64,000 nucleotides of DNA, taken from NCBI GenBank assembly GCA_018064365.1, contig JAGHVJ010000006.1, forward strand, positions 2,058 to 66,057. The letters are read 5' to 3'. The notes under the pieces are model-generated. The model did no database searches. It had not been told where the DNA came from and worked only from the letters and a program-made list of their open reading frames with translations. Made by a program: the position numbers and the translations under genes. Shown here piece after piece: positions 12,909-55,947 of the stretch. The DNA is from Candidatus Enterousia onthequi (GTDB lineage: Bacteria; Pseudomonadota; Alphaproteobacteria; Rs-D84). How positions within the stretch are numbered: position 1 is the first letter of the stretch; each line of letters opens with the position of its first letter.

Positions 12909-15011
12909 TTGTATTATAATAAAGCCGTGAAATTAAATCTAGAAAATCTTAATCCTGAACAATTACGTGCCGTCCAAAAAACAGATGGCCCTGTTTTGGT
13001 GTTGGCGGGTGCGGGAACTGGAAAAACACGTGTTTTGACTACGCGCATTGGTTATATTTTAGAACAAAAATTGGCGTTTCCGTGGCAAATTTTGGCACTG
13101 ACTTTTACTAACAAGGCCGCAAATGAAATGAAATCCAGAATTGATTCAATGTCTGACGGTGAATTTATTGCCCGTGACATTTGGTGTGGCACATTTCACT
13201 CTATATGTTTGCGGATATTGCGTTCGAATTACGCAACTGTTGGATTGCGACCAGATTTTTTGATTTATGGCGAAGACGACCAAAAATCTGTTGTTAAAAA
13301 GGTTTTGAACGACCTGAATATTACAACTACAAAAAAGCCATCAGAATACATCGAAGATTTTTCCAGGATAAAGGACCGTGGTTTAACCCAAACACCGTCC
13401 ACAGACCGAATTTTTAACACGTATAACGATGAATTGCGTCGTCTAGGTGCGGTTGATTTCGGCGATATAATTTTATGTGTTTTGAATTTGTTTGAACAAA
13501 ATCCTGCGATTTTAGAGCGTTATCAAAAACAATTCAAATATATCTTGGTCGATGAATTCCAAGATACCAATGTCGCCCAGATGCAGTTGTTAAAATATTT
13601 AACACGTGGTAATGACTGTCCGAATATTTGTTGTGTTGGTGATGACGACCAATCTATTTACTCTTGGCGTGGTGCAGAAATAAAAAATATTCTAGATTTT
13701 GAAAAAACATATCCTGGCACTACTGTGATTCGTTTGGAAACAAATTATCGCAGTACAGGAAATATCTTGGGGGCTGCAAATTCATTGATACATCATAATG
13801 ATGATAGGTTGGGCAAAGATTTACACACGGTTGCAAACGGTGATGACGGTGAAAAAATATATGTGTTCACTTTATCAACCGATTTAGACGAGGCGAAGTT
13901 TATCGCCGACGCAATTATTAAAAATGGCCCGACATATAATGATAAAACAATTTTAATTCGTTCTGGGGCGTTATCTCGTTTGTTCGAAGAAGAATTTGCG
14001 CGTCGTCAAATTCCATATCGTTTAATTGGCGCAACCAAATTCTATGACCGTATGGAAATTCGTGATGTGATTGCGTATATTCGATTACTGGTGCATCCGT
14101 TTGATGATATGTCTTTTTTGCGTGTTATTGGAAAACCTCGGCGTGGTTTTGGGCCATCTGCAATTGAAAAAATGCGTGCGGCAGGCGATAATTTAATGGC
14201 TGGATTGCGTGCGTATTCGTTCCGTGGCAAACAACAAGATACCGCAAACGAGTTTTTATCAGTATTTGATTTTGATTGGGAAAATATGCCACCCCAGGAT
14301 GCTGTTAAAAAATTATTAGATTCATCTGGATACATAAAAATGTGGCAAGAATCCAAAGATGTTGATGCGCATGACCGTATAAACAATATTCACGAATTGG
14401 TAAATTCTGTTGTTGCAAAATACGATTCTTTGCATGATTTTCTGGAACAGGCGGCATTAATGATGACGGATGATAATGATGACCCAGATATATTAAACAA
14501 TAATGCCGTGAACATTATGACGATACACGCGGCCAAAGGATTAGAATTTGATAACGTATTCCTACCCGCTGTCGAAGAGGGTGTTTTTCCAAATGAAAAA
14601 TCAATCCAAGAAGGTTCTATCCAAGAAGAACGCAGACTTGCCTATGTCGCAATAACGCGTGCACGAAAATTTGTTGTTATAACTAATGCGATATCGCGCG
14701 TTATGTATGGCGAACGAAAATATAATGCTCCCAGCCGTTTTATCAGTGAAATAGATTCTTCATTTTTGGTGTTTGGTGATGATGTCGCACGTCCCACCAC
14801 ACGCCCGCAACCACATCACTATACGAATCAAACTTATGAACATAAAAAAAAGTTTGTTGCAGCGCCTCGTAAAACATTGGTTGGCCGTATGGCGCGTCAC
14901 AGTGAATACGGCACAGGTGTTATTATCGAAGAAGGAACCGGAATTTTAACAATCGCATTTGGGACGCGTGGAATTAAAAAAATTGCGCGTGATTTTGTGA
15001 CGGTTTTATAA
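12909..15011 (+). CDS. uvrD: UvrD/Rep/PcrA-family ATP-dependent DNA helicase
   Basis: LNPEQLRAV..AGAGTGKT (Walker A), DEFQDTN, TNYRS and TIHAAKGLEF motifs. TTG or GTG start. Confidence 0.9.
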   Translation: MYYNKAVKLNLENLNPEQLRAVQKTDGPVLVLAGAGTGKTRVLTTRIGYILEQKLAFPWQILALTFTNKAANEMKSRIDSMSDGEFIARDIWCGTFHSICLRILRSNYATVGLRPDFLIYGEDDQKSVVKKVLNDLNITTTKKPSEYIEDFSRIKDRGLTQTPSTDRIFNTYNDELRRLGAVDFGDIILCVLNLFEQNPAILERYQKQFKYILVDEFQDTNVAQMQLLKYLTRGNDCPNICCVGDDDQSIYSWRGAEIKNILDFEKTYPGTTVIRLETNYRSTGNILGAANSLIHHNDDRLGKDLHTVANGDDGEKIYVFTLSTDLDEAKFIADAIIKNGPTYNDKTILIRSGALSRLFEEEFARRQIPYRLIGATKFYDRMEIRDVIAYIRLLVHPFDDMSFLRVIGKPRRGFGPSAIEKMRAAGDNLMAGLRAYSFRGKQQDTANEFLSVFDFDWENMPPQDAVKKLLDSSGYIKMWQESKDVDAHDRINNIHELVNSVVAKYDSLHDFLEQAALMMTDDNDDPDILNNNAVNIMTIHAAKGLEFDNVFLPAVEEGVFPNEKSIQEGSIQEERRLAYVAITRARKFVVITNAISRVMYGERKYNAPSRFISEIDSSFLVFGDDVARPTTRPQPHHYTNQTYEHKKKFVAAPRKTLVGRMARHSEYGTGVIIEEGTGILTIAFGTRGIKKIARDFVTVL

Positions 15012-16292
15012 ATTGTTTTTTACAATATCGCGTGCTTGTTTCCAACGTTTTTTTGTAAGTTCCCACAATTTTTCTGTGTCTTTCTTTACTTTATCGCCCA
15101 GCCCAGATTCGATTTTTCCACCCCAATCAGAAGCCAATTTTTGTGATTTTTCCGCCATATAGCAAACCAACAACAGCGATAAAATCAACAATATTGCGCC
15201 GTCAAATCCGAACCCCGTCAACAGTTGTCCTGTATTTGGATTTACAACAAAAGTCAATAAAGATACAGATACACCTGTTGCCACCGCCAGACATACAAAA
15301 TAAATTGCTGCTTTGACAATGCGTGTAATTTGGGTTTCTAATTTTTCTGCTTTGAATATATCTAAAAAAGAATTAAATATATCCCCAGCAACACCCTTGT
15401 ACTGTGTTTTTGCGGTTGTTTCTGCAATCGCAGTAAACGGCAGCAATAACAAACTTAAAAATATATCTGCGATAACACCCAAGGAAATAAACAAATATTT
15501 CCAAATGTTTTTCAATGCCAAATATGTTATGTATAATCCAATAGCAGACGTGAATAAACTTGCGCCCACACCGGCAACAACCCATTTCCAACCAATTCCA
15601 ATAATCGTTGTAAAAAATGCAGACATTTGTGTTGGTATGCACAATAACCCAGCCGCAGAATCTGCGGTGATTTGCAGGTTTTCTGGTGCGCTGGTTGCGG
15701 CATATTGACGTATTGCTTCGCACGTGTCTGGCAGTTTATATCCCACAACACCAGTGATAGCATCCCATATTGTTGTAGCGATATATGTCCCTGCCGATAT
15801 AATTGGAACCATAATCGTAGTAAAAGCATGGGCAATTCCGAACTTTAATACAATCAACCACGCAGAAATAATCAAACCTTTTTTTAATATGTCTTCTACG
15901 GCTTTTTTTGCATCTCCACCAGAACCGATTAAATGATACGCTTCAAAAGCAATCAAAAACGCGTATGCAATCAACATAAACATAATTGCAAATGTTGCCA
16001 ATGAATTGTCCAATGCTACACCGACACGCGCCATACCGCCCATAAACGCCAGCCCTAATTTTGCCTCTATCGGAACATAACTGTGGGCAACAGTTGTGGC
16101 GGTTGGACCAAAGTTATTTAATTCGTCTACGATTCGACCGGTAACCAAAGAACGATTTTCTTCTGTTGCCCAAGTCCCATAATCACCAATATCCCCAGAC
16201 CCGTATGTTGTATCTGCAAACCCAGGCACTGCGATAAATATTGCAAATATCACAATTAAAATTTTTCGTAAAAAATCACGTGTTTTCATCAT
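15006..16292 (-). CDS. Polytopic membrane protein, member 1 of a 5-gene paralogous family, VirB6/TrbL-like by architecture (putative)
   Basis: Signal or TM at the N-terminus, 6 or more TM helices and a Gly-rich sequence. Similar to the neighbouring ORFs (..IVKAAIYFV.. vs ..VIKAAISVV..). Confidence 0.45.
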   Translation of the reverse strand: MMKTRDFLRKILIVIFAIFIAVPGFADTTYGSGDIGDYGTWATEENRSLVTGRIVDELNNFGPTATTVAHSYVPIEAKLGLAFMGGMARVGVALDNSLATFAIMFMLIAYAFLIAFEAYHLIGSGGDAKKAVEDILKKGLIISAWLIVLKFGIAHAFTTIMVPIISAGTYIATTIWDAITGVVGYKLPDTCEAIRQYAATSAPENLQITADSAAGLLCIPTQMSAFFTTIIGIGWKWVVAGVGASLFTSAIGLYITYLALKNIWKYLFISLGVIADIFLSLLLLPFTAIAETTAKTQYKGVAGDIFNSFLDIFKAEKLETQITRIVKAAIYFVCLAVATGVSVSLLTFVVNPNTGQLLTGFGFDGAILLILSLLLVCYMAEKSQKLASDWGGKIESGLGDKVKKDTEKLWELTKKRWKQARDIVKNNL

Positions 16293-17785
16293 GATATAAA
16301 TCCATTGTCATGCAATCTTTTTACCGCACCATCAAACCATTTGCGTGGTGCATGCCATGCCTTTTGCCCTAAATCGTGGGCCCATTTTCCGATGTCAAAT
16401 TGTTCGCCCGTTCCAACATCTGATTCTTCGCCTGGGATTGGCAATTTAACTTTGCCCGCAGGTAACAAAGCATCAACTTTTGGACTTAATACATAATAAT
16501 ATAACAAGAATAATCCAGCCATCAAAATCAAGAAAGACCACCCATCAGCCAAGAAATCAAATGCGCCTGGGTGTTCGGCTTCGATAATTTGTTTTTGTTG
16601 TTCAAAACAAGGTTTAAATAAATCTGCATCGACCAAACCGTCCGCATCTTTGGATTGTGCCTCGCATACAGAAAATGCGTTCATCACGGATTCTGCCGCC
16701 GGTGTTGTGTTTTGTGTGATTTGTGTTCCGAATAATGGTGGTAACACAGATGTATAACCGTCCACAGGACCTGGGAATGTCGCGTCCGCAGCATAGAAAA
16801 TAATCGCAAATAATAATGCAATTTTTAACGAAATAGATACAACTGAAATTGCGGCCTTGATAACCGTTTCTAATGATTTGCGGAATAATCCTGATGCTGC
16901 TTTCCATACTTTTTCATATGCCAACGCAGCAATTAAAATGGGCAAGAATATAATAACGAAAACGACTTTGAACAAAATCGAGAAAATTTGAAAGAATAAA
17001 TCAAATCCAATAACTAAAAATGCCAGAACCAAGAACAGCCCCGCAATCCATGTCAGCATACCGCCACCCAATCCCAGCCAAGCATAATTCATCAGTGCGA
17101 ATCCACCGGCGGCGCCTGCCAGCATAACAGAATATAAATTTCCAATAACGCACATAAATGAACCAGATACCGCGGCCATTGCACCAGATAATTGGGTCGC
17201 ACCCAAAATAACATTACAATCAGTTGCAGAATTTACACCCGTTGCTACCATTGATAGTGTAGAACCAATATATAAAATTGGCGAAATTAAAATTTCAGAA
17301 ATTACTTTCAAAGATGCAGTGCTATCCAAACTCAATACACCAATCGCAACACCTGCAATCATAATGCGCAACCCCAATTTCCATACTGGTTCAAACCAAG
17401 TTTGAAAATCTATATTATTTGCATTTGCGGTATATTCTGCATTTTTCTTTGATTTTTCCCAAACATATTTTATCGCAGAAATAAACATAAAAATCGCAAA
17501 TCCGGCACCCATTAAAATCCACAAATTGTTCACAATCCCAGACCAAAACATTTCAGATGCCACACCCAACATATCTAATAATTCAACGACATATTTTCCC
17601 AAAAATACAGTGCCGATATTTTCAATCCCGTTATCTGCGCCGATTGCGTGTATAAATCCGTCAACAGATGTATAGGTCAACGCAGAACCACCAATAGATG
17701 AAGATAAATACCAAATGCCCAACCCCAAGGCAACCACTATACCCAGTACTTTTAATCCCAAAGAAATCAATTTAAATTTCAGCAT
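16289..17785 (-). CDS. Polytopic membrane protein, paralog 2 (VirB6/TrbL-like, putative)
   Basis: Multi-TM. 4-nt overlap with the downstream paralog (operon). Confidence 0.45.
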   Translation of the reverse strand: MLKFKLISLGLKVLGIVVALGLGIWYLSSSIGGSALTYTSVDGFIHAIGADNGIENIGTVFLGKYVVELLDMLGVASEMFWSGIVNNLWILMGAGFAIFMFISAIKYVWEKSKKNAEYTANANNIDFQTWFEPVWKLGLRIMIAGVAIGVLSLDSTASLKVISEILISPILYIGSTLSMVATGVNSATDCNVILGATQLSGAMAAVSGSFMCVIGNLYSVMLAGAAGGFALMNYAWLGLGGGMLTWIAGLFLVLAFLVIGFDLFFQIFSILFKVVFVIIFLPILIAALAYEKVWKAASGLFRKSLETVIKAAISVVSISLKIALLFAIIFYAADATFPGPVDGYTSVLPPLFGTQITQNTTPAAESVMNAFSVCEAQSKDADGLVDADLFKPCFEQQKQIIEAEHPGAFDFLADGWSFLILMAGLFLLYYYVLSPKVDALLPAGKVKLPIPGEESDVGTGEQFDIGKWAHDLGQKAWHAPRKWFDGAVKRLHDNGFIS

Positions 17786-17798
17786 AATGATTTACCTT

Positions 17799-19004
17799 TT
17801 ACGACCTCATTTTCTCGATAATAATTTTAGCGGGTTTTTTGATATAGTTATTAGCAAATCCTTTTGTTAAATTCATTAAACTATCGCCAAATTCTTTGCC
17901 AACCGCATTGTCGCTGGCTTGGACTTGGAACATGCCCAAAACAGTCTTTGTAATATTTGGAATATTACTATAAATAAATCCTAGTACATAAACCAAGACC
18001 ACAACACTAATCAGTGTTAAATCGTTTATGCCCGTTTGATTTAAATCTGTTTCAAATACAGTCCCATCCATAATTGCAGCCAACAAAGTATCAAAGTTAT
18101 TTAGATTGCCGTCTGGGTCTGCAAAGAATTTCACAATAATCACCAAAATCACAGTGTATGTAATTATCGCCACCCCCAAAGATATTATAGCACCAACCAT
18201 ATTTTTTATCTGTTCAACACCGACCCCTTTGCCCAGGGATTTTATCCAACTCAACCAATATGGAACATCTGCTGATTCCTTAAATGCAGTGGTAACCAAA
18301 GATAACGGAAAGAAAAATGCAAACATCGCCATGGCGATAATAACATCTATGAAATAACACAAAAATTGGAAAAACATTTTGAAAAACGCCCAAAACAAAT
18401 ACACCCCGATAAATGCCAATAATAAATGTTTTATAAATGCCCCAATCCCCATAAACATAGCCCATGAAAACCCAGTGTCTAACATTGCGACGCCCAGTTT
18501 CATAAACGATTGAAACAAAGTAAGTGTGACTTTTGCGGTATTGATAATAGAATCACGTAATTCTTGTCTGAATATCCCACCAGAATCATCCATCGGTTGT
18601 GGGGTGTATTCAATGTGTTCTTCAATTTGTTCTGGGGTCAATTGTATCATAGCAGATGCATAGTTTTGTGTCACAATAGCCACCGGTTCAAAAGCCACCT
18701 GGGTTATAAAACGTGGCAACATAACCCCCATGCCCAAAAAAGTCAAAGCAAACAAAGAATTTATAAAAACAGGCCGTATAGATTTGTTAAACCAACCATC
18801 TTGAAAGCCTTCCTTCATGTTTTTCCAAACCGCACCAAAAATATAAAACGCAAATATTGCACAGAATAAAATTGTGCAAATAAGAACGAATTTAGGATAT
18901 GCCGCTGCAGCCGCATCTGACACAATTTGAAACATGCGGTCAAATATCGGACAAGACCAACATTGCGCAGTATTATCGATAAAGGATTGTGCCAAATTAT
19001 TCAT
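17799..19004 (-). CDS. Polytopic membrane protein, paralog 3 (VirB6/TrbL-like, putative)
   Basis: The N-terminal motif CWSCPIF before the first TM is shared with 20347..21669 (CWSCQIF). Confidence 0.45.
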   Translation of the reverse strand: MNNLAQSFIDNTAQCWSCPIFDRMFQIVSDAAAAAYPKFVLICTILFCAIFAFYIFGAVWKNMKEGFQDGWFNKSIRPVFINSLFALTFLGMGVMLPRFITQVAFEPVAIVTQNYASAMIQLTPEQIEEHIEYTPQPMDDSGGIFRQELRDSIINTAKVTLTLFQSFMKLGVAMLDTGFSWAMFMGIGAFIKHLLLAFIGVYLFWAFFKMFFQFLCYFIDVIIAMAMFAFFFPLSLVTTAFKESADVPYWLSWIKSLGKGVGVEQIKNMVGAIISLGVAIITYTVILVIIVKFFADPDGNLNNFDTLLAAIMDGTVFETDLNQTGINDLTLISVVVLVYVLGFIYSNIPNITKTVLGMFQVQASDNAVGKEFGDSLMNLTKGFANNYIKKPAKIIIEKMRS

Positions 19005-19006
19005 AA

Positions 19007-20284
19007 TTATCCCTTAAAAAATTTAACAACATTTTTCACCTTGCCAGGCACAGCCTTGGCCATGCCCCATGTTGTTTTTGCATCGCCTTTGACCTGGTTA
19101 TACAATGCGGTTGCGTCTTTGCCGACATATCCTGTCAATTTTTCGCGTGTGATTTCAAATATTTTATTCATTAAAAAGAAAGTCAATAAACAAGATAACC
19201 ATAAAACAGAATGCCCGCCAAATCCACTGGATAAAGAATCCATGCTTGGTAAATTAGAATACGCAACGCCACCCGCTGCTGTGACGAACATACGACTGTT
19301 CCATTGGAACAAAGCGCGCACCAATGCCAAATTTACACACAATATAAATGCACATGCAATCATTGTCACAACCATTTGTTTTAATGCAGTTATAATGCCA
19401 GAAAAAGCAGGCCATATATCAAACCAACTGTCGCTTTTTTTTGCAACCCATGCGGCCACACCAAAAGGATATAAAATCAAAGCCATACCAAAATTAAATA
19501 TCGTTTGAATAATCAACAAAGCCATAAATAAATTGCACCCCGTAAATGTTATAATCAACAAAATACCAGAAATAATATTCATAAAACCTTGACCGCTGTT
19601 GTGCGACATTAATGTGGTTAAAGTACGCAGTCCATTAGACAAATAAGTAAGCCCACGTTTTATTACAGTATTGTTTGCATGAGACAAAACATGCACAGGT
19701 TGAATTAAATATTCACAAGATTCTGTGTCCAACCAACCCTGTGCCATTAAATTTGATGGACATTGCACCGCGCGCATATCTTCTAAATTTACATCAGATG
19801 CAGCCTTCATAATTTCGGTAGTAAACAAAGAACCAAAACTTAAAAAAGGATTAATCAAATGTTTGGTCATAAAATCTGGCCGTAATGGCAACAAAAGTAT
19901 GGCCGCAACCAATACGCGTATTGCAGGTTTTGCAACATTGTTTGCGATTTTCATTCCGTCAGTATTCTCGATAGAATCCCCAGATTTGAATCCAAATGTG
20001 GACATCCAATATTTAGGAACAAATAATTTAATCAAATACAACGCGACATAAAATACAAAAAATCCCCATACTAATAAATAAATTATACCGTCGTGATTTT
20101 GCCCAACGAAATAAGCATAAGTCCCATTTGCAACAAACATAAATGCATCCAGTACAATAGGCACTAATTTTGAAATGTCCAAAGAATCAACATCAATCAG
20201 ACCCCATCCTGCCAACGCCACACTGGGCACGAATGAGCAGAACAATAAAGTGCATCCAATTAAAAATTTTTTAATACAATTCAT
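19007..20284 (-). CDS. Polytopic membrane protein, paralog 4 (VirB6/TrbL-like, putative)
   Basis: Signal peptide. Motif IRVLVAAILLLPLRP matches IRVLFVGALLLVPLPR in 20347..21669. Confidence 0.45.
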   Translation of the reverse strand: MNCIKKFLIGCTLLFCSFVPSVALAGWGLIDVDSLDISKLVPIVLDAFMFVANGTYAYFVGQNHDGIIYLLVWGFFVFYVALYLIKLFVPKYWMSTFGFKSGDSIENTDGMKIANNVAKPAIRVLVAAILLLPLRPDFMTKHLINPFLSFGSLFTTEIMKAASDVNLEDMRAVQCPSNLMAQGWLDTESCEYLIQPVHVLSHANNTVIKRGLTYLSNGLRTLTTLMSHNSGQGFMNIISGILLIITFTGCNLFMALLIIQTIFNFGMALILYPFGVAAWVAKKSDSWFDIWPAFSGIITALKQMVVTMIACAFILCVNLALVRALFQWNSRMFVTAAGGVAYSNLPSMDSLSSGFGGHSVLWLSCLLTFFLMNKIFEITREKLTGYVGKDATALYNQVKGDAKTTWGMAKAVPGKVKNVVKFFKG

Positions 20285-20346
20285 CTCTTATAATATTATT
20301 ATTGTAATTATAACATAAATCGATAAAATTATGTTATAATTAAAAT

Positions 20347-21669
20347 ATGAATTGGCTAAAAAAATTTTGGATAGTTTTTACATCTTTCTTGCCGTTTTCA
20401 GCAGGGGCTTTTTCGCCACTTTTAATTGGTGGAATTGCGTTTGGCGGTGGAATAATTGGGGTTTCTATTTGGCGCAATGTGTCCCCTGTAAATATGTCTG
20501 ACGCATTATCTTTTTTTTCCAGTTGTTGGTCATGTCAAATTTTTTCAGATGTTGTCGCAACAATGTCAAATATTATTCCTGTGACCTATAAATCTTTGGG
20601 TGGTATAATAATACCATTTGCAATTGTTTTGACAGCAGTATGGTTTGCGTGGCAATTATTGACATTGTTTATCACGCCCGGTCAAGATAAACAGATAAAT
20701 AATTTAGGGTGGAGTCTTGCAGGACAATGGGGAACTCATGTTATTCGTGTTTTATTTGTAGGGGCATTGTTGCTTGTTCCATTACCGCGAATGATTTCAT
20801 CTGTTGTACTGGAACCTGTGTTTAATATTGGTTTGTCTATGAATTATACAATGTCTGTGGCTGATGCTCGCCAGAACTATGCAAATTGCATAATTGCAAC
20901 TGCGGTCTCGGATGTGTCTGCAACCCGGACAGATACTGCAAATCCTGGTATAAATGCATTTTCACCGCGATTTCGTCATAACTTAACATGTCAAATTGCA
21001 AATATACATCAAATGACAGGTTTGGGAATGACAATTGGTTGGACAATGTTAAATATGGCGTTTAACTATGATTATATGCATAAATTGATGTGGGGAATAC
21101 CGATTTTTCCCAATGTGCCATTGATATTGACGGGGCTTTTGATATTGGCGCTGTATTTATCTGCATTATTGCCGATACCATTATATTTCTTGGAAATATT
21201 TATCAAATTATCTATTGATTTTGTTTTGTTGCCATTGACACTGTTATCGTGGATATTCAAAGGTTGGAAAATATTTCCGTCTGGCAAGGGAAATATAAAA
21301 CAAATCATAGATGATGTTATTTCTGGTGTTTTAGGTTTGGCAATGACGGGCATATTTATAACATTTTCAATAATGTTGTTAAATGCGGCTTTTGGTAATT
21401 GGAAAGGTGCATCTGCATTACAAACTGCGATTACCCAAAACGATTCGAAAATTTTAATAGATTCGTTAATGTCCACCACAGGCAGTAAATCTCTGATAAC
21501 CATAATATTGATGGGGATATTTATGACTATGTTTATGGTGATGATACCTGCATTGATAAAGTCGTTATTTAACATAACAGTATCTGATAAATACTATCAA
21601 ACCGCAAAAAAAGATATAAATTTATTGTGGAATGGCGCGAAAAAGTGGTGGTCTGCCGCAAAAAAATAA
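20347..21669 (+). CDS. Polytopic membrane protein, paralog 5, divergently transcribed (VirB6/TrbL-like, putative)
   Basis: Shares the CWSCQIF and IRVLF..LLLVPLPR motifs with the paralogs on the opposite strand. Confidence 0.45.
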   Translation: MNWLKKFWIVFTSFLPFSAGAFSPLLIGGIAFGGGIIGVSIWRNVSPVNMSDALSFFSSCWSCQIFSDVVATMSNIIPVTYKSLGGIIIPFAIVLTAVWFAWQLLTLFITPGQDKQINNLGWSLAGQWGTHVIRVLFVGALLLVPLPRMISSVVLEPVFNIGLSMNYTMSVADARQNYANCIIATAVSDVSATRTDTANPGINAFSPRFRHNLTCQIANIHQMTGLGMTIGWTMLNMAFNYDYMHKLMWGIPIFPNVPLILTGLLILALYLSALLPIPLYFLEIFIKLSIDFVLLPLTLLSWIFKGWKIFPSGKGNIKQIIDDVISGVLGLAMTGIFITFSIMLLNAAFGNWKGASALQTAITQNDSKILIDSLMSTTGSKSLITIILMGIFMTMFMVMIPALIKSLFNITVSDKYYQTAKKDINLLWNGAKKWWSAAKK

Positions 21670-25951: not shown

Positions 25952-26695
25952 ATGACACGCTATAAAATTGCATTAGAATACGATGGAACGAATTTAATTG
26001 GCTGGCAAGAAAACTTGGACGGCCCGTCTGTTCAATCTATTCTGATGGATGCATGCGAACAATTTTGCGGCTTGCGTCCAACTATATTTGGCGCAGGGCG
26101 GACAGATTCTGGTGTTCATGCAATATCTATGACTGCGCATTTTGATTTGGAACGTGATTATGATGCTGATACAGTTATGCGTGCATTAAATTTTTATTTG
26201 TTAAAACAGCCCGTATCGGTTTTGTCTTGCGAAATTGTTGATGAAGATTTTCATGCTCGCTTTTCTTGTGTTGCGCGTCATTATAAATATGTCGTGTTAA
26301 ATCGCGCTTCTGCGCCCGTTCTTGAAAAAAACAGGGTATATTGGTTTCCTCAAAAATTAGATGTTGAATCAATGCGTGTCGCTGCCAAAAAATTATTAGG
26401 CCAGCATGATTTTACATCTTTTCGTGCCGCCCAATGCCAAGCCAAAAGTCCGATAAAAACACTCGATAAGTTAGATATTACTGTTGATGGCAATCATATA
26501 ATTTTTGAATTGTCTGCACGTTCGTTTTTGCACCATATGGTTCGCAACATTGTTGGCACATTGTTAGAAATCGGTGTTGGTAAACCATATGATATTGATG
26601 AAATATTATCGGCAAAAAATCGCAGTACCGCCGGTCCCACCGCACCGGCATCTGGATTATATTTTATTCGTGCGGATTATCCCACCAACGACTAG
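25952..26695 (+). CDS. truA: tRNA pseudouridine(38-40) synthase
   Basis: YDGTNLIGWQ..GAGRTDSGVHA (catalytic Asp region)...HHMVRNIVG. Confidence 0.9.
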   Translation: MTRYKIALEYDGTNLIGWQENLDGPSVQSILMDACEQFCGLRPTIFGAGRTDSGVHAISMTAHFDLERDYDADTVMRALNFYLLKQPVSVLSCEIVDEDFHARFSCVARHYKYVVLNRASAPVLEKNRVYWFPQKLDVESMRVAAKKLLGQHDFTSFRAAQCQAKSPIKTLDKLDITVDGNHIIFELSARSFLHHMVRNIVGTLLEIGVGKPYDIDEILSAKNRSTAGPTAPASGLYFIRADYPTND

Positions 26696-28709
26696 TCGGT
26701 GTGTATTCTATTTTTCCAGATTTATAAATTACGAAACCATTACGCAAAATTTTGTGATTGCATTTTGGTCCAGATATATCAAAATACGATACGATAAAAT
26801 CAATGTCATCATCACGACATAATTTCACAATATTTTTATGCAATGGAACAAATTTTTGGATATACGCCACAGTGAAATTTTCGGATTTATAAATACAAAT
26901 GCCGTCTGGACATTTGCGCCGAACATTTTTATCAGATGGCGGTTCATTGTTTAATTGTCTAAATGTGTTAAAAGCAAAATAATGATTAGAAGCACGCGCT
27001 TTATTAAATTCTAGTTTACCGTCATACACCATGCCAACCAATTCGTGGTCGCTTGTTGCATAAAATACAGGCGTTTGTCGGGTCGCAATAATTATGACAC
27101 CAATTATAATACATACGCCAAACAATAAATAATTTGCACGACGATAAATCCAAAGTTTTGCTTTCATCAGTGGTTTTACCAAAATTAAAAACATCAAACC
27201 CAATACGAATATAACAAATGCACTTGTTGGAATATGCGGTATGATAATATTAGATGCAGGCCAATCAGCAATTTTCTGCGCGATTCCCAATGCAAAATTA
27301 TAAACAACCATTGCGTAATCTAATAACATATGAAAACCAAATCCAGAGCATAATGTTCCAATCAAAACCATGGGCATAATTGCAAACGAAAATATCGGCA
27401 GTAATATTAAATTGCCAACCAAACTATACAGTGGCACAGAATTAAAATGTGTTGCGATAAATGGCAATGTGAATATTGTTGCAATAACAGAGGTCATAAT
27501 TGCTGCATAAAATCCATTTTTTATTTTTTCTAAACGACTTTTGTTTTCAAAAGTTTGCCCGTCAAAAAACCAAATCAAACCAAATATAGCGGCAAAAGAT
27601 AATTGAAATCCTACCTGGGTTACGAAATGAGGATTTACAAAAAACAAAATTAAAAACGCGATTGAAATATTTCGCATAGACACAGCGTTTCGTCCCAATA
27701 ACAAAGCCAAAAATAACACAGTTGTCATCAAAAACGCGCGCCATGTCGCGACCCCGAATCCAGAAATGCAAACATATAAAAATAATATCAGCCACGCACA
27801 AATTGTTGCTGTATATCGCGCAGGAATTCGTCGTGTTAAAAATCCGCATGCGCGTAGAATAAAATAGAAAATTGCAAACAACCACCCACCAATCAAAGTC
27901 ATATGAAAACCACTGATTGACCAAATATGCCCAACACCTGCGGTTGTCCAAATATTGCTATCTGGGATTGGAACGGCATTTTTATAGCCCAACACCAAAC
28001 CGTCGGTTAAAAAAGAATTTGCCGCATTGTGAATTTTATTACGAAACCCGTTTACATTAAATGCATCGTCGTGCGACAAAATTTGATAATCTGTCATAAA
28101 TCCATTTGCAGTTAAATTATTAAAATATGCCCACCGTGCATAATCAAATGTTTCTGGTGCTTCGATTTTAGCAGGCGCAAACAAGAAAGCACGGCCAGAA
28201 ATTATATCTCCGATTTCAGGACGGTTTGTATCATCTGAAATTGTGACCCGAACATTAGCATTTTTTGCTAAATTTAAATCAGATGCATTGACTTGCAATA
28301 CCAACCTTGTTTTGTTATCTGATTCATCTATATCTATAACCGTAGCGGTAATGTTTTTATCGCGTACATCATATTTTAACACAGGTGTCCCAACTATAAA
28401 ATGCGTATAAAATATTGCATACGAAAACCCGAATATAAACAGCATAATGGCACGCAGAATCAAATTCTGTTTGTTAAATAGTAAAAGTATGATACTGACA
28501 ATAAACGCCAATCCGATAAATTTAATGTTTGGTTCAAATGGTAATATGAAATATAAACCTGCGCCCAATGCTAATAACATTGGCGACCATAAAAATTTAT
28601 TTTTTAATTGTTCTGATAAAAAATCACGCATGTATGAATTATAGGAACGAAAGTTCTGTGCGCAACCATTATTTTCCAAATATAAAATCAGGGTCAGCAG
28701 CCAAGGCAA
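26664..28709 (-). CDS. comEC: ComEC/Rec2-family DNA internalisation membrane protein (no beta-lactamase domain)
   Basis: N-terminal TMs, then a periplasmic OB-like segment, then a multi-TM competence domain (..GFQLSFAAIFGLI..). The start is uncertain. Confidence 0.75.
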   Translation of the reverse strand: MPWLLTLILYLENNGCAQNFRSYNSYMRDFLSEQLKNKFLWSPMLLALGAGLYFILPFEPNIKFIGLAFIVSIILLLFNKQNLILRAIMLFIFGFSYAIFYTHFIVGTPVLKYDVRDKNITATVIDIDESDNKTRLVLQVNASDLNLAKNANVRVTISDDTNRPEIGDIISGRAFLFAPAKIEAPETFDYARWAYFNNLTANGFMTDYQILSHDDAFNVNGFRNKIHNAANSFLTDGLVLGYKNAVPIPDSNIWTTAGVGHIWSISGFHMTLIGGWLFAIFYFILRACGFLTRRIPARYTATICAWLILFLYVCISGFGVATWRAFLMTTVLFLALLLGRNAVSMRNISIAFLILFFVNPHFVTQVGFQLSFAAIFGLIWFFDGQTFENKSRLEKIKNGFYAAIMTSVIATIFTLPFIATHFNSVPLYSLVGNLILLPIFSFAIMPMVLIGTLCSGFGFHMLLDYAMVVYNFALGIAQKIADWPASNIIIPHIPTSAFVIFVLGLMFLILVKPLMKAKLWIYRRANYLLFGVCIIIGVIIIATRQTPVFYATSDHELVGMVYDGKLEFNKARASNHYFAFNTFRQLNNEPPSDKNVRRKCPDGICIYKSENFTVAYIQKFVPLHKNIVKLCRDDDIDFIVSYFDISGPKCNHKILRNGFVIYKSGKIEYTPTSRWWDNPHE

Positions 28710-46754: not shown

Positions 46755-46778
46755 GCCGGCATTTGCCGGCATTTTTTT
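46755..46778. terminator. Bidirectional terminator GCCGGC-ATTT-GCCGGC followed by a T-tract
   Basis: Perfect 6-bp GC stem. A/T tracts on both sides. Confidence 0.8.
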
Positions 46779-47796
46779 AAAACGCAACCTTTAACGCGGT
46801 GGACAAGAACGGTGTTTTTGTTGTTAAACCAACCGAAGTCCACAATTCCATATTTTCACTATATTTATACCGGAAAGAGCCAATCACAGTATGGTCATAA
46901 TATTGTGGCAAATCACGATGCCAAATCCCAGTTTTTGAATACAGATATGACAGAGATAAAGAATAGTTCAAAATATCATAACTGACACCACTGCCCACAG
47001 ATATTCCATCACTTGGCGCGCCAACTGGATTTTTATCATATATCGCAACGGCCGAAGTTCCAAAAATCCAACTGTTATATTGTATATTAAACCCAACCGA
47101 ACCTTGTGCGCGCCAATCTGCGGTAACTTCATCTAAATAAGACGCAGGACTAAATCCGTCTAAATTATTCATAAAAGACGCGCCCAACGATAACGCGGAT
47201 TTTATTTTGCCATTTGGAAATCTAAATTTCACACCGCCGTCAACAGCATAATCATAATCTTCACCAAATGCCGCCACAGACACACCATATTGTCCGACAT
47301 TTGTTGGAACACTAACCAAATTTACACGTGGCGCATCATGCCCAGAATTCGCATGTGTATTTGGAATAACATTTCCGTCTGGCGAAATTCTTTTATAAAA
47401 CAAAGGATTGTGATTCACGCGCAATCCACCGACATCTGGAATTCCAACACTCAACTTGTGTGTCACAGAATGAGTTAAACCAATTTCCACACGCCCTAAA
47501 TCTTGAACTTCATACAAAGCAAATGCATCATGCGCCCAATCATGTTCGGATAACGCTTCTTCGTCCCATTCGTACACCAAACCAAACGTTTGACCACGTG
47601 CCACAGCATAGTTGTATTGTGCGCGCAATTCAAAATCACCTAAGAATAGAGTGTCGTGAAAATCCGGTTCTATAACACCGGCTTGGCCAGATACATTAAA
47701 TTTTAACGCGCTGCGTCCATAGTTATATTGCAAAGCATAACCAGACTCAACAAAAACCAAACCAAATATCAATCCCCGTAACAAGTGTTTTTTCAT
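46777..47796 (-). CDS. Outer-membrane beta-barrel protein (porin/OmpA-like)
   Basis: Signal peptide, alternating amphipathic strands and a C-terminal ..LKVAF (terminal Phe). Confidence 0.6.
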   Translation of the reverse strand: MKKHLLRGLIFGLVFVESGYALQYNYGRSALKFNVSGQAGVIEPDFHDTLFLGDFELRAQYNYAVARGQTFGLVYEWDEEALSEHDWAHDAFALYEVQDLGRVEIGLTHSVTHKLSVGIPDVGGLRVNHNPLFYKRISPDGNVIPNTHANSGHDAPRVNLVSVPTNVGQYGVSVAAFGEDYDYAVDGGVKFRFPNGKIKSALSLGASFMNNLDGFSPASYLDEVTADWRAQGSVGFNIQYNSWIFGTSAVAIYDKNPVGAPSDGISVGSGVSYDILNYSLSLSYLYSKTGIWHRDLPQYYDHTVIGSFRYKYSENMELWTSVGLTTKTPFLSTALKVAF

Positions 47797-50552: not shown

Positions 50553-50897
50553 TTAATCAATCCAACCATTTTTGCGCGCAGCATTTTCAATAACTTGCAT
50601 GGCGCCGTTCCATAAATAAGCATCGTGATTTTCAGCCCAAATATATTGATGAGGTGCACGACGTTTGTCGCCAAATTTTTTCATCACTGCCAGTTGTTCT
50701 TCACTTAATCGGCCAGATAAATACAATTTTGTAATCATGGTTTCTACATCTAATAATTCGCAAATTCGACGAGTGCCCGGACGATGATGTTGCACCAATC
50801 CAGATTGAACAGATTTTGAATAAACAAACCAAAAGCACATCTGTTCCGCATTGTGAAATTTTTCCATATTGTCATGAGTATTTTGTAATGTATTCAT
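50553..50897 (-). CDS. Hypothetical small cytoplasmic protein (114 aa)
   Basis: Balanced composition, no motif recognised. Lies just downstream of virB10. Confidence 0.45.
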   Translation of the reverse strand: MNTLQNTHDNMEKFHNAEQMCFWFVYSKSVQSGLVQHHRPGTRRICELLDVETMITKLYLSGRLSEEQLAVMKKFGDKRRAPHQYIWAENHDAYLWNGAMQVIENAARKNGWID

Positions 50898-51069
50898 TTT
50901 TTTCTCCTTTGCTGGTATTTGTTTTATAAAGCAAAACAGGTGTGATTGCCAAATATTACAACCCGGGGTTGAAGTTCGAATCGAAAAATATATTGTTTAG
51001 CAATATTTTCCTAATCGTATTCGAATCGACGCACACTTTTGTTTTGCTTGTGCTTTATTTAATAAAAAA

Positions 51070-51097
51070 ACACACATCTTGCGATGTGTGTTTTTTT
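51070..51097. terminator. Bidirectional terminator after virB10
   Basis: ACACACATC-TTGC-GATGTGTGT with flanking A- and T-tracts. Confidence 0.75.
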
Positions 51098-51115
51098 ACA
51101 CTTGATTTCCACATA

Positions 51116-53596
51116 TCAATATACTTCGATTGGTGGAAAACAATCTCCGCTGCCGGCGGGGCAACATGCATACGGCGACTCAGAACCAGGTCCCATTTCC
51201 GTATAAACTTCGCCTGTGCAACAACCGTTCGCATCAGGTGACGTCCCATCTTCGCATAACAGAGTCCCAACCGTATCTGCCGCCGGTGCCGCCGGTTTTT
51301 CAAAAGGATTGACGATATTGCTGTTATCATCGTATTGCAATCCCAGAACCTGTTCGTTGTACTCTTGGGTTCCTTGGTTCAATGTTATGGCTTGTCCCTC
51401 ACTATCAACACCTTGGATACCTTGTGTTACTTTATTCTGATAATACGCATCATATTTTGCCTGGTTCACAGCCTGATAATTTTGTGCCTGGCAATACGCC
51501 AACACTGTTTTGTAATCATACCCAGATTTGCGTATCTCTTCTAATTTCCCATCATCCACGGTCCATACATCATTATCTTTCCGGGTGCAAAATTTTGATA
51601 AATTAAATCCACGTGATTGCCCCGTCCACGAAGAGTCGTCGGGGTTAACGGTTATCTCACCTTGCACATCTGACCATTTACGACGTTGTGCCTTGCCAAA
51701 TGCGTGAAATGCACATTTCTTACCCGCATTGGCACCAGCCTCGTCGTCTTCGCCACACGTCGCAACCAAATCAACCGGTGAATAAACCGTAATACGTGTT
51801 CCTGCGGCAATTGAAAATGGTGGAACGGTATTATCCAATGCATCAACTATCAATTTTTGTGCAACTTGATTCCATGCAGTAATAACCTCGTTTTTTGCCA
51901 ATTCTGATGAACGCACTTTTCCAGATTGCACAACTGTATTATTATCTAAATCAATTTGATTTACAAAAGTATCTGCAATTGGCGCAATCATATTTACCGC
52001 CGCCGGTATAACCGCCGTCAATAATGGCATAACCATTTGTTCTATGTAATCGGTACTACCATACCCCGGCACACCAACACGTCCTTGGGAATCCGCGGAA
52101 TATGGGTCTTGTTCTTTTGCGAAATTAAATTCCACACCGTCCGGACGAATAAATTGATACCAGTTTATCTCCATACGTCCAATAGACTTATATGGCCCTG
52201 GCAATTCGCCTGTCAAATACCCCATCAACAAAGTTCCTGTTGGAATAATAACTGTGCGCCCGTTATCAGAATAAACATTTCTATCTACCGTTGCACGCAC
52301 AGGAATACCTTTGCCACCCGTGCATGTTCCTCCGGCGTTTAAATTACATCCATATACAGACGGATCTGCACGAACATCAGATACAATTGTTGCCGGAATT
52401 GGTTTGAATTGACGTAATATAAATGTTCTATCATACGGCATACTGGAATACACAGATTCGTCATCCAAAGATGAACCTATCAATGCCTCTTTTTTTAATT
52501 CGTTTTTTGCAAAATTCAAAACCCCAGAACCTTCTTGTGGTTGCATTGTTTTTCTCAAATTTCCCATACCCTTTGGTACATAATTTCCCGATGTCGCAGG
52601 TGCGGCTACGCGTGTAGATTTTGAACGTAATTGAGGAACCGTATTAGTATTCACTGTTCCACTACGATGGTCGGCATCTGTCCCAATCTTTTTACGACCT
52701 TCGATACTGGTTATAATCCCTGTATCAGGATTATAAATACCGGTTGGACTATTACATTCTACGTCTGAAAAAGGATGAAATTCATAACGTCCAGCCTTTG
52801 GTTTTATCCAACCAATTTGTTCGCCCGACATATCATATCCCGGCATTGCAAAATCAGAACATTTTTCTGGTGCTTTACGACGTGGTGTTATTTCTTCTGT
52901 TGCGCCAAATATATTTCTATTACCACCAACAATCGGTTCAGGTTCTTCAAAATCATCTTCTTCATCAATCAAAAAATCATCTTCTGGAACGATTGGTTCT
53001 GGTTCCGAAATTGGTGCCGAAACCGGCTCTGGCTTTACAACTGGTTTTTGTTCTGGTTCTGGTTCTGGTTCTGCAACGCCACCTGTTGCACTAACAGGAA
53101 TAACGATTTTTGATGTTTTTAAATTAGTATTTTCCGTATCGTTTTTATCGTGCCATTCAACCAATAATGTTACGTTCCCAGAAACATTGCTATCGCCCGG
53201 AATAAATGTCACATCCACAGAACAAGGAATGTCTTTATTCACTGGTTTATTTGCACATCCAAATGTATTCGCAGAAAAACCAGATACAGAATCTTGTACA
53301 CTGACAGAATCAACAATCGCGTCATGTGTAGCATTGATTTTGAATTTTTGTGTTTGTTTTTGTCCAATCTTGGTATTAGAAAAATCAACATTTTCTGGCG
53401 ATATCACCAAATCAATATCGTAATCAGTTCCAACAACAGGCGCAGCCTTTTTTTTAGGTTGTCCAATCAACAAGAACAACAATATCAAAACGACAACAAA
53501 CGCCGCCACCAACAACAACCAACGAACTACGGGTGGCGTCGTATTAAATGCTTCTTGTATTTTTGTTTTTATTTTATCTTTCAGTGTATTTGCCAT
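51116..53596 (-). CDS. virB10: Type IV secretion system VirB10 (826 aa), with an N-terminal extra domain, a Pro-rich linker and a ~200-aa Cys-rich C-terminal extension
   Basis: N-terminal TM, PEPEPEQKPVVKPEP, and a TrbI/VirB10 barrel region (..RTFILRQFKPIPATIVSDV..VIIPTGTLLMGY..RMEINWYQFIRPDGVEF..GYGSTDYIE..). Confidence 0.8.
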   Translation of the reverse strand: MANTLKDKIKTKIQEAFNTTPPVVRWLLLVAAFVVVLILLFLLIGQPKKKAAPVVGTDYDIDLVISPENVDFSNTKIGQKQTQKFKINATHDAIVDSVSVQDSVSGFSANTFGCANKPVNKDIPCSVDVTFIPGDSNVSGNVTLLVEWHDKNDTENTNLKTSKIVIPVSATGGVAEPEPEPEQKPVVKPEPVSAPISEPEPIVPEDDFLIDEEDDFEEPEPIVGGNRNIFGATEEITPRRKAPEKCSDFAMPGYDMSGEQIGWIKPKAGRYEFHPFSDVECNSPTGIYNPDTGIITSIEGRKKIGTDADHRSGTVNTNTVPQLRSKSTRVAAPATSGNYVPKGMGNLRKTMQPQEGSGVLNFAKNELKKEALIGSSLDDESVYSSMPYDRTFILRQFKPIPATIVSDVRADPSVYGCNLNAGGTCTGGKGIPVRATVDRNVYSDNGRTVIIPTGTLLMGYLTGELPGPYKSIGRMEINWYQFIRPDGVEFNFAKEQDPYSADSQGRVGVPGYGSTDYIEQMVMPLLTAVIPAAVNMIAPIADTFVNQIDLDNNTVVQSGKVRSSELAKNEVITAWNQVAQKLIVDALDNTVPPFSIAAGTRITVYSPVDLVATCGEDDEAGANAGKKCAFHAFGKAQRRKWSDVQGEITVNPDDSSWTGQSRGFNLSKFCTRKDNDVWTVDDGKLEEIRKSGYDYKTVLAYCQAQNYQAVNQAKYDAYYQNKVTQGIQGVDSEGQAITLNQGTQEYNEQVLGLQYDDNSNIVNPFEKPAAPAADTVGTLLCEDGTSPDANGCCTGEVYTEMGPGSESPYACCPAGSGDCFPPIEVY

Positions 53597-55173: not shown

Positions 55174-55947
55174 TTAATTTTCTTCTGCTTGACGAGTCCA
55201 ATTTAACGGGTCGTTTTGCTCTAAATCTAAAATATTGCCACCAGAATCGATAACATTATAATCACTGATTCGGAATCCCAATGGGTTTTCCATGCTTTCT
55301 GCCCATCGAACCGCATTTTTGGCATTAGATTCTAATTTTACACGCAATTTGTACGGCTTGCGATATTCCATATCGCCCAATGGCCCATATACGCAAATAT
55401 AAGTAAATGTCACATCGTAAGTGTCTGTGCTGTTCGTGACCGGGACCACAGAAAGTGTGGACGGATATTCAACAGAACACCGGATATCAAACGCTTCGTC
55501 TAAATCTTGACGAATAATATTTACCATATCTGTCATAACAAATTTTCCAAAAACCGAATCTGTTGAACGGGTTTTTACAACGCCAGTATCGTTATGCGCC
55601 CATTTTGCCCGCATTACCGCTAAATCAGGTACAATTTCATTCCGCGCAAGCACATATTCACGAATAAATTGCTTTTTATAGACATCTAAATCCATATCTG
55701 TCGGCATTTCGGTCAGTGTTAATTCTTTATCGCGTATATTTGTTGTGGTCAAGAAAAACACCTGGGGACGATTAAGAGGGAACATTTTTGCCAATGTAAA
55801 AACCAAAACCCCCAGCACAACCACAGCCGTTGCCAAAACAAAGGTCATCAGTCTGGATATTAAAATTGGCGGTTCTACGCGGTCTTGCAAAGGTTTTCTC
55901 CTCCCTTTTATTAAATGATTGTAGACAAAAGAATAACACATACGCAA
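55174..55947 (-). CDS. virB8: Type IV secretion system VirB8
   Basis: Cytoplasmic N-terminus, TM, NTF2-like domain. FIREYVLARNE and C-terminal NPLGFRISDYNV match VirB8 ..YVTARESY.. / NPLGFQVTSY. Confidence 0.8.
   Translation of the reverse strand: MRMCYSFVYNHLIKGRRKPLQDRVEPPILISRLMTFVLATAVVVLGVLVFTLAKMFPLNRPQVFFLTTTNIRDKELTLTEMPTDMDLDVYKKQFIREYVLARNEIVPDLAVMRAKWAHNDTGVVKTRSTDSVFGKFVMTDMVNIIRQDLDEAFDIRCSVEYPSTLSVVPVTNSTDTYDVTFTYICVYGPLGDMEYRKPYKLRVKLESNAKNAVRWAESMENPLGFRISDYNVIDSGGNILDLEQNDPLNWTRQAEEN

Follow-up and report, generated by a model that had tools for sequence, protein, structure and literature searches.

VirB10 is the only subunit of type IV secretion systems (T4SSs) that spans both membranes, and its barrel normally lies at the end of the protein. 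In the 64,000-nucleotide stretch of DNA from Candidatus Enterousia onthequi considered here (contig JAGHVJ010000006.1; hereafter the window), virB10 follows directly on virB9 and virB8 on the same strand and encodes a protein that continues well beyond the barrel. A cytoplasmic N-terminus of 21 amino acids (aa) is followed by a transmembrane (TM) helix, a predicted Ig-like beta-sandwich, a Pro/Glu-rich region, a small beta module with two cysteines (Cys), a linker, a divergent TrbI/VirB10 barrel with a candidate antenna, and a composite tail that ends in a module of six Cys (Table 1). The six-Cys module, which also occurs in other protein families, and the decoration placed behind the barrel are undescribed in the libraries and literature searched.

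The gene, its operon and the canonical parts of VirB10

The virB10 gene is a single uninterrupted open reading frame (ORF) with an ATG start and no internal stops. A search of 5.8 billion proteins yielded 887 homologues. Of the best 120, all but a few have lengths of 770-850 aa and match 96-100% of the query with the identities given in Table 1. In a scan of one genome per GTDB species, relatives were encoded in 291 species representatives, and 80 of these loci were analysed. They are from metagenome-assembled genomes (MAGs) of gut and rumen origin, assigned to the Alphaproteobacteria, to 'uncultured Rickettsiales' or to 'Candidatus Enterousia', and include one complete circular genome, OZ007020.1, of 958,618 bp. 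An ORF of 826 codons in DNA of 39% GC, together with the homologues and the species matches, rules out chance. A previous interpretation of the DNA, made from the letters alone (the sequence-only reading), had raised the concern that two separate ORFs might have been joined. That an assembly or annotation artefact fused separate genes has a practically negligible probability, as orthologues of the same length occur in hundreds of independent assemblies from varied hosts and projects, the circular genome among them. The same reading regarded the architecture as unusual. Within the lineage this does not hold: the orthologues universally carry the additions, and the architecture is therefore lineage-typical.

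A perfect hairpin with a T-run lies directly 3' of virB10 and is likely the operon terminator, which makes virB10 probably the last gene of a three-gene operon. The trio is kept in 75-80 of the 80 loci, and the gene order rplJ-rplA-nusG/virB8-virB9-virB10-orf114 is conserved across them. Housekeeping genes flank the operon, among them rpoB, ribosomal protein genes, secE, tRNA-Trp, a sigma-factor gene, yidC and lpxD. Conserved order and housekeeping neighbours indicate that the operon is chromosomal and vertically inherited. The protein is the standard VirB10 of this operon in the reduced-genome gut lineage Rs-D84/'Ca. Enterousia'.

Table 1 Features of the virB8-virB9-virB10 operon and of the encoded VirB10. 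AF2, AlphaFold2; pLDDT, predicted local distance difference test; column identities are those of the 120-sequence alignment
Feature	Position in the window	Strand	Characteristics
virB8, 257 aa, first gene of the operon	55174..55947	-	Pfam VirB8 27.4 bits, cut-off 23.2; in 75/80 loci
virB9, 505 aa	53632..55149	-	CagX/VirB9 domain aa 48-292 and ~210-aa C-terminal extension; in 80/80 loci
virB10 ORF	51116..53596	-	826 aa + stop codon; full-length orthologues 46-92% identical
Single TM helix, aa 22-44	53465..53533	-	Hydrophobic, VVRWLLLVAAFVVVLILLFLLIG; helix in AF2 model; 73% column identity
ASH/PapD-like Ig beta-sandwich (predicted), aa 58-172	53081..53425	-	AF2 pLDDT ~80-85; Foldseek 6fvi, 2e6j, 7ptb
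Pro/Glu-rich region, aa 174-225	52922..53077	-	Aligns with Ensifer 79-111; disordered in AF2 model
Small two-Cys beta module, aa 241-312	52661..52876	-	~70% column identity; pLDDT 70-77, all-beta
Linker, aa 313-380	52457..52660	-	Poorly conserved, column identity 0.18-0.27; pLDDT <50
Divergent TrbI/VirB10 barrel, aa 381-610	51767..52456	-	Pfam 56.2 bits; Foldseek matches
Candidate two-helix antenna, aa 516-587	51836..52051	-	Hydrophobic helix MVMPLLTAVIPAAVNMIAPIA; inter-helix loop VNQIDLDNNTVVQSG
VirB10-specific part of the tail, aa 611-770	51287..51766	-	Invariant Cys 614, 628, 670, 702; alpha/beta core
Terminal six-Cys module, aa 778-826	51119..51265	-	C781-x10-C792C793-x17-C811C812-x6-C819-FPPIEVY-end
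Perfect 16-bp hairpin + T-run, likely terminator	51063..51098	-	18 nt past the virB10 stop

The annotated 403-aa VirB10 of an Ensifer adhaerens plasmid served as the canonical reference. Residues 433-610 of the query align with Ensifer residues 217-379, at ~28% identity in the barrel, and the Pro-rich residues 176-204 with the Ensifer segment listed in Table 1. The aligned barrel is preceded by 432 and followed by 216 residues, compared with 216 and 24 in the Ensifer protein, which leaves ~210 extra aa on the N-terminal side and ~190 on the C-terminal side. As judged from the alignment, the TM helix and the Pro-rich region are canonical VirB10 parts. The sequence-only reading had described an N-terminal extension of ~330 aa with a Pro/Glu-rich linker. 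The linker and the extra domains are real, but the extension is shorter than stated, and part of what was counted belongs to canonical VirB10. The ~200 aa given in that reading for the C-terminal extension compare with an excess of ~190 aa and with the 216 aa behind the barrel.

The assignment to the family rests on several observations. The Pfam TrbI/VirB10 profile (PF03743) matches aa 400-608 with 56.2 bits against a gathering threshold of 35 and is covered from position 8 to 184 of 188. The NCBIfam profiles for VirB10 (NF038091; aa 433-610, 58.3 bits, equivalog cut-off 220) and ComB10 (NF038092; 45.6 bits, cut-off 300, E 5e-12) score below their cut-offs. Scores above the Pfam and below the NCBIfam thresholds identify a genuine but divergent TrbI/VirB10 member that is the equivalog of neither VirB10 nor ComB10. 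Its bitopic topology, the Pro-rich region and the VirB8/VirB9 context agree with this membership, and both profiles place the domain in the middle of the protein, as had been noticed earlier. In Foldseek the modelled barrel, with a pLDDT of 30-60, matched TrwE, CagY, TraF, ComB10 and Xanthomonas citri VirB10 (E 1.7e-6 to 1.7e-5). These fold matches are supportive, although the model from which they come is of low confidence. The canonical proteins of Agrobacterium tumefaciens, pKM101 (TraF), R388 (TrwE) and Ensifer display the same order of stub, TM helix, Pro-rich region and TrbI barrel, the last with a two-helix antenna for which the window's protein has candidate helices. Canonical P-type VirB10 is likewise encoded directly after virB8 and virB9, and the window's protein shares with it the Pfam TrbI match. 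Compared with canonical VirB10 it is about twice as long, the Ig-like domain and the two-Cys beta module being extra.

In an alignment of 120 full-length sequences (the query and 119 homologues), the canonical VirB10 elements, all of which are present, proved to be better conserved than the rest of the protein, and conservation peaks in the barrel and its candidate antenna. The AF2 model contains helices at aa 517-536, 541-544 and 564-587, with column identities of 0.83-0.91, at the position of the Ensifer antenna. They lie inside the barrel domain and not at the C-terminus, where the sequence-only reading had assumed the antenna to be. In canonical VirB10 the antenna consists of two helices joined by an extracellular loop (PMC9371333). 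The inter-helix loop VNQIDLDNNTVVQSG of the candidate antenna is almost invariant (~0.91 column identity), and such conservation at an extracellular tip hints at a specific contact.

Added domains and the terminal six-Cys module

The 826-aa protein contains 16 Cys, of which 13 are invariant in the 120 aligned sequences and Cys114 is present in 99% of them. The tail (aa 611-826) was correctly recognised as Cys-rich by the sequence-only reading, but it holds 10 Cys and not ~14. The peptides quoted in that reading (NATHDAIV...LLVEW, aa 88-148, and the terminal ...CFPPIEVY) are present in the protein.

The first addition, with Cys114 and the invariant Cys125, separates the TM helix from the Pro-rich region. 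A beta-rich, possibly Ig-like segment had been suspected here, and the predicted structure supports it. Its Foldseek matches, which besides the entries in Table 1 include 9fh8, comprise ASH/PapD-like domains of CEP192 and HYDIN with E 1.8e-5 to 1e-4 and target TM-scores of 0.60-0.69, and the model has the seven-to-eight-strand beta-sandwich fold of the PapD/ASH type. The sequence scores stay under the family cut-offs, both for NCBIfam choice-of-anchor D (NF012200; 25.3 bits versus 45, E 1.7e-5) and for Pfam Cep192_D4 (15.4 bits versus 35.5, E 0.021). A limited literature search found no report of an ASH/PapD-like domain in any VirB10, and all 358 matching plasmid VirB10 genes match solely the barrel region, aa ~377-618. 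The second addition, the small beta module with the invariant Cys246 and Cys281, matched no NCBIfam profile when aa 236-320 were searched alone and no Pfam profile with the whole protein or with aa 51-310.

The third addition is the tail. In an AF2 model of the tail alone, computed from 118 sequences (mean pLDDT 72), an alpha/beta core extends over aa ~665-750, with a pLDDT of ~90 at 665-705. A disordered stretch follows, and the chain ends in a beta-hairpin unit at aa ~780-820 with a pLDDT of ~85. All six Cys of the terminal module are invariant in the aligned sequences. The number of conserved Cys is even in every module: two in the Ig domain, two in the beta module, two plus two in the first part of the tail and six in the terminal module. 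Tail and module matched no Pfam or NCBIfam entry; a profile search against PDB sequences gave a best E of 0.36, and Foldseek searches with the fold a best E of 1.3 in PDB and 0.08 in BFVD.

When the tail profile was compared with 1.84 billion representative proteins, 269 matched at E <= 1e-3, and 150 listed matches were classified by a local hidden Markov model (HMM). Among the matches listed, the whole tail (profile positions 1-216, also 1-165) occurred solely together with a barrel match, apart from short pieces resembling C-terminal fragments. The last ~45 residues matched, in addition, many proteins that are not VirB10. The tail is thus composite, and its terminal module is a separate, reusable domain, a feature that the sequence-only reading had left unremarked. 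The module follows the pattern C-x10-CC-x14-CC-x6-C-[FY]PP[ILM] in 261 of 268 proteins. Its spacing is exactly 10/14/6 in 178 of 263 instances and 10/17/6 in the VirB10 of the window.

Besides VirB10, two kinds of carrier were observed. The first comprises proteins of 160-280 aa with one to three module copies; the full-length representatives inspected (P0136, P0148, P0149, P0153, P0157, P0160) begin with a signal peptide. The second comprises bitopic proteins of 680-850 aa (P0164, P0172, P0184, P0188) in which a coiled-coil N-terminal region, one TM helix and a Pro/Glu/Val-rich spacer of ~200 aa precede the module at the end. In this order of cytoplasmic domain, TM helix, Pro/Glu-rich spacer and small C-terminal domain they resemble TolA/TonB-type proteins; unlike in these, the C-terminal domain is the six-Cys module, and no sequence relation was detected. 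VirB10 itself has often been likened to TonB. Bitopic proteins of ~700 aa with this architecture (locus L083, 8653-10812; L082, 133-2373) have, besides the terminal module, a conserved ASKPAYNVSQNEKMFVA motif and match no described family; the gene at L083 adjoins gcrA and lies near a prepilin-peptidase gene. In the MAG assembly JAIDWS01 a tailed VirB10 (L026) occurs alongside the tandem-module protein P0149 (L084), so that at least one genome has both module families. Within the window and the 80 loci, an HMM scan of every ORF disclosed the six-Cys module in VirB10 alone. The occurrence of the module on proteins with Sec signals supports its extracytoplasmic location.

Proposed position and role of the tail

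Three extracytoplasmic, Cys-bearing additions would thus have been grafted onto a canonical VirB10 framework: the Ig domain, the two-Cys beta module and the 216-aa tail behind the barrel. Somewhat better than even, in our estimate, are the chances that the tail decorates or anchors the outer-membrane core complex from the periplasm and is probably stabilised by disulfides. The data establish the gene, its architecture and conservation, the modular make-up of the tail and its lack of known homologues; we infer the periplasmic location, the disulfide bonding and the anchoring or stabilising role. In this model each VirB10 protomer would contribute one tail, located periplasmically at the rim of the O-layer and directly under the outer membrane. 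Through binding to itself or to an envelope partner used in common, the module would anchor and stabilise the outer-membrane complex. A periplasmic tail is the more likely arrangement because the antenna ends on the periplasmic side and the chain is back in the barrel before the tail begins (topology according to PMC9371333). The sequence-only reading had considered the tail surface- or periplasm-exposed; an extracytoplasmic location fits, whereas exposure on the surface is the less likely of the two.

That a domain can be appended at this site is sterically plausible. The pKM101 core complex has been purified via a C-terminal Strep-tag on TraF/VirB10 (PMC3630358), which indicates that the VirB10 C-terminus is accessible in the assembled complex; its position in the solved core complexes is not stated in PMC3630358 or PMC9371333. 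At one tail per protomer, the O-layer would gain an additional ring or crown. That TolA-like bitopic and exported proteins share the module makes a common envelope partner, or the module itself, its most likely binding target. Between virB8 and secE/nusG there is no virB7-like small ORF with a signal sequence or lipobox, and the tail could therefore replace or supplement VirB7. Its role might be analogous to that of the N0 ring of X. citri VirB7 (PMC6536674) or of Cag3/CagT and DotK (PMC9371333).

The length of VirB9 is conserved in all 80 loci, and so is its C-terminal extension. Both outer-membrane core subunits are thus C-terminally extended, which fits a generally elaborated core complex. 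The CagX/VirB9 domain ends at ~aa 292 and gives way to low-complexity sequence in which Ala, Met, Tyr and Pro are frequent, followed by a C-terminal domain. In the latter, residues 468-499 match SPOR just below the Pfam cut-off (20 versus 21 bits), and a BLAST comparison with the clear SPOR domain found in the window's D-Ala-D-Ala carboxypeptidase gave no similarity; a SPOR identity of the VirB9 C-terminus may be taken as a weak lead.

Additions to core subunits are known from other systems. The additions of Helicobacter pylori CagY and Legionella pneumophila DotG are N-terminal repeat regions, and the barrel stays C-terminal. Like the protein of the window, both combine a VirB10 barrel with large lineage-specific additions, and the CagY repeats have been described (PMC9371333). 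Unlike in CagY and DotG, there are no repeats here; the barrel ends at aa 610 of 826, the additions are discrete globular Cys modules, and a folded domain follows the barrel. The N0 domain of X. citri VirB7 and the AQGP-rich extension of its VirB8 are also lineage-specific C-terminal additions that decorate the O-layer (PMC6536674); they reside on VirB7 or VirB8 rather than on VirB10, have another fold and share no sequence with the tail. That T4SSs diversify through domains gained by VirB7, VirB9 and VirB10 is recognised (PMC9371333).

Alternatively, the tail or at least its terminal module could be displayed on the surface, where it would make contact with a partner cell as an element of adhesion or recognition. 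The uncultured order Rs-D84 includes 'Ca. Enterousia', whose genomes of ~0.75-1.0 Mb lack the tricarboxylic acid (TCA) cycle and respiration; Rs-D84 lacks many pathways, and dependence on a partner organism has been proposed (PMC12306168), which would suit such an element. Small disulfide-rich domains are common in extracellular proteins, the module is also found on Sec-exported proteins, and the window encodes other large Cys-rich exported proteins. Two of these, of ~735 aa (6895-9102, +, and 9972-12182, +), match no family; each has a signal peptide and an N-terminal region in which Ser, Thr and Arg abound, and they contain 26 or 33 Cys. Surface exposure is disfavoured by the point at which the tail starts: the barrel has completed its final strand, and the chain is periplasmic to the antenna hairpin (PMC9371333). 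Furthermore, no route is evident by which a folded domain of ~200 aa would cross the outer membrane, and the length of the Pro/Glu-rich linker of the bitopic carriers suits a span of the periplasm, not a crossing of the outer membrane. A surface location of the tail appears unlikely.

PEP-CTERM, LPXTG and GlyGly-CTERM are known C-terminal sorting signals. The six-Cys module could similarly be a recognition or sorting tag read by a dedicated machinery. Among the matches listed, the last copy lies within ~8 residues of the C-terminus in nearly all carriers. FPP[ILM] usually follows the final Cys, 238 of 261 proteins end 4-7 residues past it, and the module is borne by unrelated protein families. 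A candidate machinery is a MacB/FtsX-type ABC system: in a conserved operon of loci L081, L084 and L085 (6000-10555 in L084), the gene for a Sec-exported protein that ends in two modules comes after those for a 195-aa protein, an ABC ATPase and a MacB_PCD/FtsX permease, with the gene for a protein of 450 aa at the head of the cluster. This cluster, which adjoins ftsQ and ftsA, may be an export or sorting system linked to the module proteins. However, P0136 contains three copies, the internal ones of which are not C-terminal, and the module, unlike the known signals, is devoid of a TM segment or basic tail. In the AF2 model the module is a compact hairpin, and VirB10 has its TM helix and barrel to fix its position already. 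We regard a sorting function as very unlikely.

The conserved Cys could also bind metal ions or act as a redox switch instead of forming structural disulfides. In favour of this are the anoxic gut habitat and the absence of respiratory chains (PMC12306168), and a scan of 53 ORFs of the window revealed no Dsb-type oxidoreductase. A span of 40 residues with vicinal CC pairs and six invariant Cys might accommodate a cluster. There are neither CxxC nor His partners, however, and an even number of Cys per module is the pattern expected of disulfide pairs; moreover, all carriers are extracytoplasmic. Metal binding or redox switching is very unlikely.

Several points weigh against the periplasmic anchor. 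The AF2 confidence for the barrel is low, and the orientation of the domains is undefined: the full-length model has a pLDDT of 55.8 and a predicted TM-score (pTM) of 0.28, the tail-only model a pTM of 0.35, and the former is too poor to place the tail against the barrel. The partner of the tail or module and the position relative to the O-layer are proposed on indirect grounds. Disulfide formation is assumed for organisms that are strict gut anaerobes and for a window in which no Dsb protein was seen. The module is always located at the extreme C-terminus and closes with a fixed FPP[ILM]-x, as might likewise be expected of a recognition tag, and a virB7 gene may be situated elsewhere in the genome. 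Finally, no homologue of VirB4, VirB11, VirD4, VirB2 or VirB6 was found in the window or in the 1.66 Mb of lineage loci described below, so that operation as a canonical T4SS is putative.

Completeness of the secretion system and meaning for the lineage

T4SS genes were searched in the window, in the flanks of the locus in the complete genome and in 85 lineage loci that together comprise 1.66 Mb, ~20 kb per genome. These searches, Pfam scans among them, revealed no homologue of VirB2, VirB3, VirB4, VirB5, VirB6, VirB11 or VirD4. A tblastn search of the 1.66 Mb with Ensifer VirB2, VirB3, VirB4, VirB5, VirB6, VirB8, VirB11 and VirD4 gave no match; this probe also misses the lineage's own VirB8, which is too divergent for it and is seen by Pfam and by tblastn with the window's VirB8.

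On these grounds virB8-virB9-virB10 could represent an envelope-spanning scaffold that these reduced genomes have retained and repurposed and that works with other lineage-specific proteins rather than as part of a complete T4SS machine. The strong terminator right after virB10, compared with the Ensifer operon, which continues with virB11 and virD4, and the barrel score of 58 against the NCBIfam VirB10 equivalog cut-off of 220 are consistent with this proposal. Against it stands the limited portion of each genome that the search covered. In Rickettsiales the T4SS genes are scattered over several islands, which makes unlinked ATPase genes plausible here too. Antenna and barrel, furthermore, are the most conserved part of the protein, as expected of a working channel. 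A repurposed scaffold is rather unlikely in our estimate, and the remaining genes of a complete machine may lie elsewhere in the genome.

Further genes of the window were noted in this context. Five polytopic membrane proteins of 401-498 aa, with ~3-5 predicted TM segments each, are encoded at 15006-21669, four on the reverse and one on the forward strand. Those at 17799-19004 and 20347-21669 are clear paralogues (E 2e-11) that share a CWSCxIF motif near the N-terminus; those at 15006-16292 and 19007-20284 display weak similarity (E 5e-4). The array recalls the arrays of VirB6 paralogues in Rickettsiales. Its proteins match neither Pfam nor NCBIfam and show no BLAST similarity to Ensifer VirB6, and one of them has 639 homologues in the lineage, none of which is named or has a Pfam domain. 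A ComEC-type competence channel (Pfam Competence and DUF4131) is encoded at 26664-28709 (-); it would be relevant if the VirB-like core serves DNA uptake, as in the ComB system of H. pylori. Next to the operon, orf114 (50553-50897, -) encodes 114 aa and follows virB10 in 78 of the 80 loci, with the strong hairpin terminator in between. Its product has no TM segment, signal peptide or family match and may be a conserved partner or regulator. The 339-aa protein encoded at 46777-47796 (-), whose gene adjoins the sigma-factor gene in the 12 closest loci, is beta-rich and has a signal peptide and an aromatic C-terminal residue; without a family match, it is possibly an outer-membrane beta-barrel.

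A more far-reaching model can be put forward, although we consider it quite unlikely. As a lineage-specific docking domain, the six-Cys module would link the VirB10 ring, the TolA-like bitopic protein and the Sec-exported proteins to a single structure of the envelope, and the decorated VirB8-VirB9-VirB10 core would form the centre of a new cell-envelope organelle, possibly without the ATPases VirB4, VirB11 and VirD4, that serves attachment to or exchange of material with a partner cell.

The six-Cys module forms a compact, well-defined domain family, with the 269 representative proteins that match the tail profile and no library entry found. A conserved folded domain after the VirB10 barrel, combined with an Ig domain beside the inner membrane, is a mode of decoration that was not found described. 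Full-text searches (Enterousia, Rs-D84 and RF32 with T4SS, and VirB10 C-terminal extension) disclosed no description of the overall domain architecture of this VirB10 and no discussion of a T4SS in Rs-D84/'Ca. Enterousia'. With one copy per protomer, the additions would predict a core complex of unusual shape. The lineage is common in the guts of humans, ruminants, pigs, horses and birds and has genomes below 1 Mb. Its strictly conserved chromosomal virB8-virB9-virB10 operon provides a concrete candidate for the cell-cell interaction of Rs-D84.

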